The position numbers and the translations under genes are program-made. Shown piece by piece: positions 2,987-44,544 of a stretch of 64,000 nucleotides of DNA. The stretch is from Klebsiella phage fENko-Kae01. The notes below the pieces were generated by a model. The model had not been told where the DNA came from, did not search any database, and worked only from the letters and a program-made list of their open reading frames with translations. The DNA is taken from the sequence record OR228459.1; one strand, written 5' to 3'. Position 1 is the first letter of the stretch, and every line of letters starts with the position of its first letter.

Positions 2987-2998
2987 GAGAGGTGCTAA

Positions 2999-3328
2999 AT
3001 GAGATTCAGTGATTTAACTGAAGAAGCACCCGCAAAAGATATTCGCAACATGATTACCAGTGTTGCGTTATCTCTAGTAGCTAGTGGGCGTGAAAATGTT
3101 AGTGTGCAATCTCTAATTGCAGAAATTAAAAAACGTACTAACATTGATGTTCCTTATAATGTTATGATGGATATCTTAAACTCTTTGCCATTTGTACAGG
3201 ATGCCAATTCTGATATGGTACAATTTGCTGGTGCTGATGAAAGCAGTAGTGAAGAGGGTGAAAGCTCAGAAGACATTGTAAGCGATATGGCTACAAAAGC
3301 TGCAACCAGCAGCATGAACCAAAAATAA
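2999..3328 (+). CDS. hypothetical acidic protein
   Basis: 109-aa ORF with GAGAGG RBS. Confidence 0.45.
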   Translation: MRFSDLTEEAPAKDIRNMITSVALSLVASGRENVSVQSLIAEIKKRTNIDVPYNVMMDILNSLPFVQDANSDMVQFAGADESSSEEGESSEDIVSDMATKAATSSMNQK

Positions 3329-40228: not shown

Positions 40229-40723
40229 ATGTTTGAATGGGATCAAGAGAAGTACTTTGATCCTACCGAGGACGGTTTAACTCACATCAATACATATAGT
40301 AAAGGAAGAACCGTATTGGGGAGGATGCTATCAAATTTTGCATACTCCCCTTTTGTGTATGAACCATACGGGAAATTTGATTCAGTTGAGGGATTCTGGT
40401 ACTGGTACTTAACTGGACAGAAGCATGAAGACTTGAGAACAGTAAGTGGTTCATATGCTAAAGTACTTGGTAGGAAATATGAAAGTGATAGGGTAGAACA
40501 TTCTCTCACTGAAGAAACAATTGAAGTAATGCAAGGTGCAATGATTAGTAAGATTGCACAGAATAAAGAACTACAGGAAATGTTAATTAGTAGTACTTTG
40601 CCTCTATGTCATTACTATTTCATGTATGGACGTGTCATAAATCCCTTTGATGGTCATGATTGGTTCTCCGAGACATTGGAGGATATTCGGACGGTATTGA
40701 AACTTGGGACAAATGATGTTTAA
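40229..40723 (+). CDS. NADAR-domain (YbiA-like) protein, putative ADP-ribose processing/N-glycosidase
   Basis: HINTYS...SNFAYSPF; SVEGFWYWY; ISKIAQNKELQEMLISST parallel YbiA blocks INFYS..FSNFA, TSEHYFQAQK, KFEQHAELRALLLAT. Confidence 0.55.
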   Translation: MFEWDQEKYFDPTEDGLTHINTYSKGRTVLGRMLSNFAYSPFVYEPYGKFDSVEGFWYWYLTGQKHEDLRTVSGSYAKVLGRKYESDRVEHSLTEETIEVMQGAMISKIAQNKELQEMLISSTLPLCHYYFMYGRVINPFDGHDWFSETLEDIRTVLKLGTNDV

Positions 40724-40734
40724 TGTGATATAAT
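40703..40734 (+). promoter_or_regulatory. conserved promoter class (CTTGGGACAAA-N10-TGTGATATAAT) driving a non-coding transcript
   Basis: exact match; no ORF follows for about 600 nt. Confidence 0.6.
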
Positions 40735-40741
40735 ATGTGTA

Positions 40742-41190
40742 GATATAACAATTGTGGCTGCTTTATGCAGACGTACTAAAACCGAAACCCTTGAAAACGT
40801 AAAGGGACGATGAGCATGACCACACATGCGAAGTGCAGATGAAACCCGCTCGGCGGCAATGCGGCACTATAAAAGGACACGTAAGGCACGTTAAGTCCTC
40901 TTGATAGACATATGAGGTCACTCACCAAAATGCTAAGGGAGACGTTTATACGTCGCATATAGAGCTTGATCGAATAGGCTTTGTATGATGTGGACTAAGA
41001 CCCCGACCGTTGCATATGACTGTGATAGAGAGAAACAGAGCAACCCGCTTTCGTTCTTTGACCAGTTTTAGTACGCTATAGTTGTATCTAAAATTCAGAG
41101 AAATTCACAATTCGATAATTCCGAGGCTACCAGCGTCAGAATCAATAATCAATAATCAGTACTTTAATTAGTACTTTTTTATTGTCTTCA
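40742..41190 (+). ncRNA. candidate structured non-coding RNA (~450 nt) with its own promoter and terminator
   Basis: ORF-free in all frames; relatively GC-rich for this genome; many local hairpins; bounded by promoter 40703-40734 and terminator 41158-41184. Confidence 0.45.
41158..41184 (+). terminator. intrinsic terminator
   Basis: AGTAC-TTTAATTA-GTACT then TTTTTTATT. Confidence 0.55.
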
Positions 41191-41345
41191 TTCCCCAATG
41201 GGGGGATGAAATTGCCTCTACAAACCTCGTCAGGAATAAAAGTACAATATGAATTGAGTTACGATAATACGAACGTAGTGAGTATTAAGAGTAACGAAAA
41301 TTCTTAGACAATCGTAGATTGGCTAATTAGACAATAGGAACAATA

Positions 41346-42311
41346 ATGAATAAATTAAACAGATCACAAGGTTGTTTAATGGGACTAGCTGTAGGTGATG
41401 CAGTAGGAACTACCTTAGAATTTAAACAAAGAGATTCAGAGAATATCACTGATATGGTAGGTGGTGGCCCATTCCAATTAGAAGTAGGTCAATGGACTGA
41501 TGATACCAGTATGGCATTATGTTTAGGCTATGCATTGCTAGAAGATCATAAAGTAGAAACTTCTGATTGGTCTAGATTGCAATTAGTTAATTACGTTGAT
41601 TGGTACAAAAATGGTTATTGTAGTTCTAATGGATACTGCTTTGATATTGGCGGTACTACTAGTAATGCATTACTAAATTTCATCCGTAATGGTACACTTG
41701 TTAACAACGATCATTTTCTTGATTCTGGTAATGGTAGTTTAATGCGTTTAGCTCCAATCCCAATCTATTATAATACTGGTGCTGATGTTGATAAGTTCAC
41801 CTATTTGTGTTATGCAGCCGATATGAGCAGTTCAACTACACATGCAAGTACTTTATGTCGTCAGTCATGTGTTGCGTTTGCTGTACTACTTAATCGTGCT
41901 TTAAATGGCCCGATTGAATTAGAAAATGTTGAACATGATGTATTACAATCAAAGCGTTCATTACTTTCTTTCCCAGAAAAAGTTTGGGAAGGTCTTGTGA
42001 GTGAACCTTTAGTACTAGAAATCATGAATGGTTCTTATAAGAATAAGTCACGTGATGAAATTAGTTCTAGTGGGTATGTTATTGATAGCTTAGAAGCCGC
42101 TCTATGGTGCTTCTGGAACACCGAAAACTTCCGTGACGCAATCCTATTAGCTGCTAACTTAGGTGACGATGCAGACACCGTAGCGGCAATTACAGGGCAG
42201 ATTGCAGGTGCTTTCTATGGTCTTGATGGTATACCAGATGAATGGGTACAGAAGATTGCCAAGAAAGATGAAATTTTACAATTAGCAGAGGACTTGACAG
42301 ATGGGAATTAA
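41346..42311 (+). CDS. ADP-ribosylglycohydrolase family protein (ARH/DraG-like)
   Basis: N-terminal GCLMGLAVGDAVGTTLEF and C-terminal GDDADTVAAITGQIAGAFYG are the characteristic ARH metal-binding motifs. Confidence 0.8.
   Translation: MNKLNRSQGCLMGLAVGDAVGTTLEFKQRDSENITDMVGGGPFQLEVGQWTDDTSMALCLGYALLEDHKVETSDWSRLQLVNYVDWYKNGYCSSNGYCFDIGGTTSNALLNFIRNGTLVNNDHFLDSGNGSLMRLAPIPIYYNTGADVDKFTYLCYAADMSSSTTHASTLCRQSCVAFAVLLNRALNGPIELENVEHDVLQSKRSLLSFPEKVWEGLVSEPLVLEIMNGSYKNKSRDEISSSGYVIDSLEAALWCFWNTENFRDAILLAANLGDDADTVAAITGQIAGAFYGLDGIPDEWVQKIAKKDEILQLAEDLTDGN

Positions 42312-44453: not shown

Positions 44454-44544
<91 letters not shown>

Follow-up and report, generated by a model that had tools for sequence, protein, structure and literature searches.

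The DNA between a gene for a NADAR-like protein and a gene for an ADP-ribosylglycohydrolase (ARH) in Klebsiella phage fENko-Kae01 (sequence record OR228459.1) is a structured noncoding RNA region, as judged from compensatory base pairs that exceed controls and from the lack of a coding signal. Coordinates refer to the window, the whole stretch of 64,000 nucleotides (nt) that was analysed. Positions 40706-41330 are read here as an RNA gene (R1) that is one of five ancient paralogs of an ornate RNA. Comparison of its copies shows the unit to belong to a family of autonomous, promoter-driven structured RNA genes, independent of the ADP-ribose enzymes. Salmonella phages Munch, PHA46, 7t3 and SE_PL, all ~350-kb Rak2/121Q-like jumbo myoviruses, match the region at 98.7% identity, and the RNA unit is by its distribution part of the core that Rak2/121Q/GAP32-like jumbo phages conserve.

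No other stretch of the locus is as well conserved as the intergenic DNA; in other phages the flanking genes mostly fall under detection. Identity is 72-77% over 430-530 nt in phages of Erwinia, Serratia, Yersinia, Pectobacterium, Cronobacter, Xanthomonas and Klebsiella. This conservation does not follow a reading frame: among 13 orthologs no frame is conserved, 150 of 166 indels are not multiples of three, and the longest stop-free stretch varies in frame or strand from phage to phage. A protein-coding gap was rejected on these two counts, the absence of a conserved open reading frame (ORF) and the indel pattern, and a 41-aa ORF at 41182-41307 (+) was rejected as a gene because it is frame-shifted in relatives. 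ORFs of 36-60 aa occur within the unit (40763-41043 on the minus strand and 41182-41307 on the plus strand in the window), and deposited genomes label such ORFs in the same gaps of 7t3, PHA46, Hallingskeid and 121Q (gp516) as hypothetical proteins. Since they are not conserved as frames, these small ORFs are probably misannotations.

The ~440-nt core of the RNA has a minimum free energy z-score of -3.75. RNAalifold predicted 77 pairs, 30 of them compensatory, from the 13 orthologs and 65 pairs, 43 of them compensatory, from 55 copies. Pairing was then counted over the 55 copies for a 64-pair, 12-helix structure including a pseudoknot, with the 3' partners slid by 1-3 columns and 500 shuffles as control. 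The 64 pairs are canonical in 96.7% of cases versus 39-45% with slid partners, and 49 of them show double changes. Covariation scores 0.68, against ~0.10 in the control, and none of the 500 shuffles attains the observed value. The 7-bp pseudoknot (helix 7) is 99.7% paired, with double changes at all seven positions, and occurs in at least five compensated versions (UCGAAU/AUUCGA, UUGUAU/AUACAA, UGAAUU/AAUUCA, UCAUGU/ACAUGA and CUGUAU/ACACAG-type). A 5-bp long-range helix (helix 9) is 99.6% paired, with double changes at four positions. G-U pairs are common in the predicted structure, which is therefore strand-specific and would act as RNA rather than as duplex DNA.

The promoter of the unit overlaps the final codons of the NADAR-like ORF and scores 10 of 12 matches, with a TG extension, in a sigma-70-like scan. 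Its consensus, GGGACAA-N11-TGTGATATAAT, occurs at 11 positions of the window, each time on the plus strand (3331, 9045, 11916, 21642, 40706, 44417, 46745, 53223, 60587, 62245 and 62604), against 0.01 expected, and three of the 11 lie immediately 5' of tRNA genes. By these counts it is a phage-specific promoter class, and the RNA-unit promoter is common to all five paralogs. An earlier note on this DNA had described an ORF-free, structured gap with a conserved promoter of its own; both features stand, the former by the non-coding indel pattern and the covariation, the latter by the excess of sites and its recurrence in the paralogs. The window holds five tRNA genes (44454, 46822, 54764, 62814 and 62980). 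The one at 44454-44544 is called by ARAGORN as a tRNA-Ser with the unusual anticodon ACT (A at position 34), and Rfam confirms it as a tRNA.

Near the 3' end of the core, a hairpin followed by U6 spans 41158-41180. It has a free energy of -8.7 kcal/mol (z = -5.8), is AU-rich with only two G-C pairs in its stem, and was not called by the terminator scan. A terminator-like hairpin is found here in R1, R2 and R3; the counterpart is absent in R4, R5, the 121Q copy L056 and R1 of EJP2, and the internal hairpin is lacking or merely minimal in three of the five paralogs and EJP2. Its stem covaries from phage group to phage group. Conserved, covarying RNA runs past it to ~41330, and the unit is therefore ~590 nt long here, not ~450 nt. 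The length given in the earlier note thus holds for the ~440-nt core and falls short of the whole unit; likewise, its intrinsic terminator survives as a hairpin with a U-tract, but a weak, AU-rich one that several copies lack. The RNA unit thus measures ~0.6-0.7 kb overall, with a possible short form of ~0.44 kb.

The 3' domain beyond this hairpin, termed block B, has a fold z-score of -4.3, and one-nucleotide indels within it shift the frame yet leave the downstream bases conserved. The loop of its nested hairpin (RAACNNNGUGA) is kept even in bacterial copies of the unit. The palindrome that closes the domain is near-perfect (TTAGACAATC-gta-GATTGGCTAA), and both halves co-change in other phages (TTTGACATTC-gaa-GAATGGCAAA in GAP32-type copies, for example L006 at ~2990-3015); it may form a hairpin in the RNA or serve as the operator of a DNA-binding protein dimer. 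A distance of 15 nt separates the end of block B from the ARH ATG, and the promoter scan gave no credible promoter between 41181 and 41346. Because of this distance and the missing promoter, ARH is probably transcribed by read-through from the RNA-unit promoter. One further element, UAUAGUUGYRUCYAAAAUUYRAG, lies 3' of a GCUUUCG hairpin in R1- and R3-type copies and after GCUAAGGGAG in R2, R4, R5 and bacterial copies (alignment columns ~420-470 versus ~600-625; for example L020 and L083 versus the window), while the 121Q copy L003 holds it at both places. From the alignment, this shift is a domain relocation or permutation inside the RNA family.

Genomes of Rak2/121Q-like jumbo phages carry five paralogs of the unit (R1-R5), the window copy being R1 (Table 1). 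The five are co-oriented and 52-84 kb apart in a layout conserved across phage genera; in SE_PL, nhmmer places all of them on one strand. Genomes in which the pattern scan found four units have one gap of ~165 kb that matches the site of the fifth unit of GAP32. If five points fell at random on a circle, their smallest gap would reach ~15% of the genome with P ~0.005, by a post-hoc test on genomes that are non-independent through conserved synteny. Divergence between paralogs equals that between orthologs across host genera; the duplication is therefore ancient, and every copy has been kept. GAP32/CBB-type units use a 'TGAAACG -35' promoter class, which in the CBB paper sits upstream of DNA-synthesis genes (PMC5259590).

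Table 1. Features of the R1 locus and positions of RNA units in other genomes
Feature	Position	Strand	Remarks
NADAR/YbiA-fold protein, divergent, 164 aa	40229-40723	+	Upstream neighbour, outside the RNA unit
RNA-unit promoter	40706-40734	+	GGGACA 40706-40711; 12-nt spacer; extended -10 TGTGATATAAT 40724-40734
Structured RNA core, ~440 nt	40741-41181	+	Multi-helix, with long-range helix and pseudoknot; covariation, minimum free energy
Near-invariant unpaired block	40854-40865	+	CGGCAATGCGGC; RNA core
Near-invariant unpaired block	40903-40913	+	GATAGACATAT; RNA core
Near-invariant unpaired block	40932-40941	+	GCTAAGGGAG; RNA core
Pseudoknot arm 1	40969-40975	+	ATCGAAT, long-hairpin loop; pairs with 41110-41116
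Near-invariant unpaired block	41004-41053	+	CGACCGTTGCA...GAAACAGAGCAACCCGCTTTCG; RNA core
Long-range helix, 5' strand	41022-41026	+	TGTGA; pairs with TCACA 41105-41109; encloses invariant GAAAC..CAACCCGC hairpin
Pseudoknot arm 2	41110-41116	+	ATTCGAT; pairs with 40969-40975
Weak hairpin, then U-run	41158-41180	+	AGTACT/AGTACT; candidate leaky, optional internal terminator
3' domain (block B), ~145 nt	41186-41330	+	Kept in all paralogs and bacterial copies
Block B strong hairpin	41186-41210	+	CUUCAUUCCCC-AAUG-GGGGGGAUGAA
Block B conserved segment	41215-41233	+	CCUCUACAAACCUCGUCAG (invariant CCUC.ACAAA.CUCGUCA); AT-rich variable linker follows
Block B nested hairpin	41252-41303	+	Conserved loop GAACGUAGUGA
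Block B near-palindrome	41304-41326	+	TTAGACAATCgtaGATTGGCTAA; closes the unit
ADP-ribosylglycohydrolase (ARH), Tri1/DraG-type, 321 aa	41346-42311	+	Downstream neighbour, outside the RNA unit
SE_PL units (complete genome)	23, 105, 185, 245, 318 kb		Gaps with wrap-around 82, 81, 60, 73, 54 kb
Serratia phage BF units	30, 93, 174, 259, 335 kb		Gaps with wrap-around 62, 81, 84, 77, 52 kb
Metagenomic genome 3300012988 units	41, 108, 188, 269, 332 kb		Gaps with wrap-around 67, 80, 81, 63, 75 kb
GAP32 units	35, 99, 177, 261, 341 kb		Gaps with wrap-around 64, 79, 84, 79, 53 kb
Island loci (bacterial, metagenomic)			L096-L102, L110, L113, L126, L132, L170

The genes around the copies vary. Synteny holds for the NADAR-like gene at the R1 locus, and an extra ORF of 480-630 aa separates it from the RNA in GAP32, CBB, BF, XbC2 and Yen9-04. 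ARH lies downstream of R1 in the window and Munch, EJP2, Hallingskeid, BF and XbC2; GAP32, CBB and Yen9-04 have no ARH there and an intact RNA. The other four paralogs adjoin unrelated genes (EndoVII/baseplate on the opposite strand, ferritin-like, methylase/nucleotidyltransferase and hypothetical proteins). R2 copies have their flanking genes on the opposite strand and their own strong bidirectional terminator after block B, and are therefore stand-alone RNA genes. A neighbouring protein partner (reverse transcriptase, TnpB/IscB or nuclease) was also considered; Pfam searches of the ORFs flanking several copies were uninformative.

In the phage collection the RNA unit occurs only in Rak2-like jumbo phages. 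A scan of 185,579 species genomes with the core pattern identified seven full-length units in Enterobacteriaceae, including the Serratia fonticola chromosome, Enterobacter chinensis, and Serratia and Buttiauxella contigs, and one further match on a 2.8-kb contig of a 'Clostridium' metagenome-assembled genome; more copies were found in metagenomes. The bacterial copies sit in small integrated islands, each with one full unit and neither the NADAR-like nor the ARH enzyme. Gene order in the islands is a Tyr integrase or large Ser recombinase, the RNA unit, a convergent CI-like S24 repressor, a Ner-like regulator, a 286-aa membrane protein, an LprI-like protein and a resolvase; the RNA unit is the only jumbo-phage gene found in them. 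In E. coli, a partial copy is present in 2 of 5,426 genomes, in an island adjoining ffs (for example L175, E. coli LR-29-1), and none of the 72,556 plasmids in PLSDB has the unit. The Enterobacteriaceae islands may be satellites or decoys of Rak2-like phages.

No Rfam 15 model matched the RNA unit (at the gathering threshold or E < 1) in the window, in seven further copies from phages or in seven from bacteria, in a search that took in GOLLD, ROOL, OLE, RNase P, tmRNA, group I/II introns, T-box and 6S, and ARAGORN detected no tRNA or tmRNA within the unit. Likenesses noted by eye to RNase P CR-II/CR-V, the hammerhead CUGAUGA...GAAA core, the T-box AG/F boxes and U6 ACAGAGA did not hold up: either the motifs come in another order or essential positions disagree, and support from a covariance model is lacking. 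No published description of the RNA was found in the literature on noncoding and structured RNAs of jumbo phages, RaK2, 121Q and GAP32. Noncoding RNAs have been reported in the related phage PA5oct (PMC7318152). The 3' end of one of these, ncRNA004 (UUCCUUCCCAAACGGGGAGGAAAU; L177 1660-1740), resembles the first block B hairpin, with nhmmer homology that is not significant, and ncRNA004 is antisense to structural genes, as is R2.

The closest parallels are GOLLD, ROOL and OLE. These are large ornate noncoding RNAs of bacteria and phages that form RNA-only assemblies as homo-oligomers (PMC12286853). The jumbo-phage RNA resembles this group in its size of 0.5-0.8 kb, many covarying helices, pseudoknots and near-invariant unpaired blocks, and also in its carriage by phages and mobile elements and its own transcription unit. 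It differs in matching no Rfam model in sequence or structure, in a host range of Gamma-proteobacterial jumbo phages, and in the number and arrangement of its copies, each genome having five diverged paralogs at fixed, evenly spaced sites.

The best reading, held with moderate confidence (probability about 0.5) and by analogy, is that the RNA is an ornate one of the same kind as GOLLD and ROOL, autonomous and acting in trans. Its support comes from the ornateness of the fold, the invariance of the unpaired blocks, the existence of stand-alone R2 genes, and islands that keep the entire unit. Sequence comparison shows the unit to be driven by a phage-specific promoter of sigma-70 type that carries an extended -10. 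The ~440-nt core folds into at least 12 covariation-supported helices, with the 7-bp pseudoknot and the long-range helix around near-invariant unpaired blocks, and is followed by a weak, optional hairpin/U-tract and the conserved, structured ~145-nt 3' domain. Transcription would yield a ~440-nt core RNA and a full-length form of ~590-700 nt, and at R1 read-through would enter the ARH mRNA. The folded RNA may then act in trans, rather than on its flanking genes, as a stable particle that is either RNA-only or joined by a partner conserved in phage or host, a mode of action proposed for GOLLD and ROOL. The idea that the five paralogs form a hetero-pentameric ring was set aside, as the pseudoknot arms of each paralog match their own partner and not that of another paralog.

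Several points weigh against a trans-acting RNA. It leaves unexplained both the even spacing of five co-oriented copies (minimum gap ~15%, post-hoc P ~0.005) and the conservation of this layout across phage genera, and to our knowledge the known ornate RNAs are single-copy. No expression data were found for the RNA units, and no partner, ligand or catalytic activity was identified for the RNA. The noncoding RNAs of PA5oct, which are defined by RNA-seq, have no homology to the unit detectable with nhmmer --max, and therefore offer no expression evidence by proxy.

Because a trans-acting RNA does not account for the spacing, the main rival is an RNA-dependent replication origin, a tentative alternative that appears unlikely. 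The five units would be origins with a structured primer or R-loop RNA, as in ColE1 RNA II or T4 oriF/oriG: the promoter would fire, the folded transcript would keep an RNA-DNA hybrid near the U-tract/CCCC-GGGGGG, and phage RNase H and polymerase would prime synthesis, while islands would copy the origin for replication and packaging by the phage, or as decoys. ColE1 RNA II is ~550 nt long and requires a defined fold, T4 replicates and transduces plasmids that contain one of its origins, and in lactococci a cloned phage origin can serve as a resistance decoy (Per), all of which favors this alternative. The jumbo-phage unit shares with these origin transcripts a dedicated promoter, an RNA of ~0.5 kb inside a cis-defined unit, several dispersed copies in a T4-related replicon and a G-run after a U-tract; five co-oriented copies 52-84 kb apart with conserved positions, islands that lack replication and packaging genes and keep precisely the RNA unit, a phage annotation with RNase HI and T4-type replication and recombination genes, and the use in GAP32/CBB-type units of the 'TGAAACG -35' class known upstream of DNA-synthesis genes (PMC5259590) point the same way. 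However, the fold is much more elaborate and more conserved in sequence than that of any known origin transcript, there is no antisense RNA I counterpart, and the role of origin is hypothetical here. Block B, 3' of the putative priming site, is under RNA-level selection, its stems covarying and its loops kept from phage to bacteria. A plasmid origin was rejected as PLSDB has no match (0 of 72,556 plasmids), and a bidirectional-origin signature was rejected as GC skew has no step at R3 or R4, two sites with the same gene orientation on both sides, though this test is weak. The wider proposal, that the five units are origins or another position-dependent cis element working through a folded ~0.6-kb RNA and that the islands are satellites or decoys pirating the unit, is also improbable on balance; if true, the islands would be the first satellite-like elements tied to jumbo phages by an RNA-dependent origin.

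A cis-acting giant leader is more doubtful still. Such a leader would modify RNA polymerase (put/EAR-like antitermination) or sense a signal that controls read-through, gating the co-oriented downstream gene arrays and, in islands, antisense transcription into the CI-like repressor gene. Every unit does head a long same-strand gene array, ARH starts 15 nt after block B without its own promoter, R1, R2 and R3 have the internal terminator-like hairpin, and the unit converges on the CI-like repressor gene in all islands. HK022 put RNA, EAR and lambda nut are likewise structured promoter-proximal RNAs followed by a terminator and long operons. Nevertheless, two convergent genes come after R2, as does a strong bidirectional terminator, one paralog is a terminated, stand-alone gene, and the internal terminator is optional, being absent in R4, R5 and EJP2. 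Known antitermination RNAs measure 70-120 nt, and the jumbo-phage unit is 5-8 times larger than these systems. The islands, moreover, are one lineage, and their shared arrangement is therefore a single observation. The proposal of the earlier note, a three-part module in which the RNA would be a guide, decoy or substrate working with NADAR and ARH to reverse ADP-ribosylation, is very improbable. Both enzymes do come from ADP-ribose-processing families, and ARH, probably cotranscribed, follows R1 in the five cases listed above. Nevertheless, four of the five paralogs have unrelated neighbours, R1 persists with its RNA intact and without ARH in GAP32, CBB and Yen9-04, the bacterial islands have neither enzyme, and no ADP-ribosyltransferase was linked to the 40229-42311 locus; a module with a dedicated RNA does not withstand these observations.

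The identities proposed for the two enzymes fared better. The ARH ORF matches Pfam ADP_ribosyl_GH (PF03747) with E 5e-67 and 226.9 bits (gathering cut-off 26.2) over profile positions 1-287 of 287, a full-length match that confirms the ARH/DraG-like assignment, and it also matches PHROG 6572, 'ADP-ribosylglycohydrolase'. Its best NCBIfam model is the Tri1 ADP-ribosylarginine hydrolase NF041672, at 350.9 bits, under the equivalog cut-off of 490; by these scores Tri1 is the nearest named subfamily and the protein is not an equivalog. It thus resembles Tri1/DraG/ARH hydrolases end to end and differs from them in this score and in the lack of a partner transferase nearby. The NADAR call holds for the fold but not for the family score: the upstream ORF reaches 17.3 bits with Pfam NADAR (PF08719), under the gathering cut-off of 35.1, and 21 bits with TIGR02464, whose cut-off of 73.7 is not reached. 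A profile from 22 homologs had a single PDB match, NADAR 8bau (E 0.004), in an alignment that lines up the LSNF and S-x-E motifs. The AlphaFold2 model (pLDDT 90) has YbiA 2b3w, NADAR 8bau and NADAR 8bat as its top three PDB matches (TM 0.51-0.62). Modelling thus confirms a NADAR/YbiA-like fold in a divergent protein, which shares fold and motifs with these families at an identity of 17-20%.

A putative anti-defence role of the two enzymes is plausible. As part of the trans-acting RNA reading, they would be ordinary neighbours from a phage NAD/ADP-ribose toolkit, their adjacency to the RNA being positional and not functional. The deposited annotation of SE_PL names, far from the R1 locus, a macro-domain protein (gp202), SIR2 (gp283), NAMPT-like (gp289), NMNAT (gp291) and NUDIX (gp169/gp206) proteins, a NAD/ADP-ribose toolkit, and it also names RNase HI (gp088) and a translation initiation factor 3 homolog (gp083).

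The jumbo-phage RNA is a large family not described before, with an unusual genomic layout. Large, highly structured noncoding RNAs are rare, and nearly every class found has revealed new biochemistry. The present RNA, of ~0.6 kb and with very strong covariation, has five paralogs in a clade of cultivable jumbo phages of E. coli, Salmonella, Klebsiella, Erwinia and Serratia, and the family is thus directly open to genetics, RNA-seq and cryo-EM. For annotation, the 0.6-0.8-kb 'gaps' and small hypothetical ORFs in 7t3, PHA46, Hallingskeid and 121Q become RNA genes, and a tempting link between RNA and the reversal of ADP-ribosylation is removed as unsupported. That small chromosomal islands have captured the RNA unit alone suggests that jumbo phages and mobile elements interact in a way not recognised so far, be it through piracy, a decoy or a shared host target.

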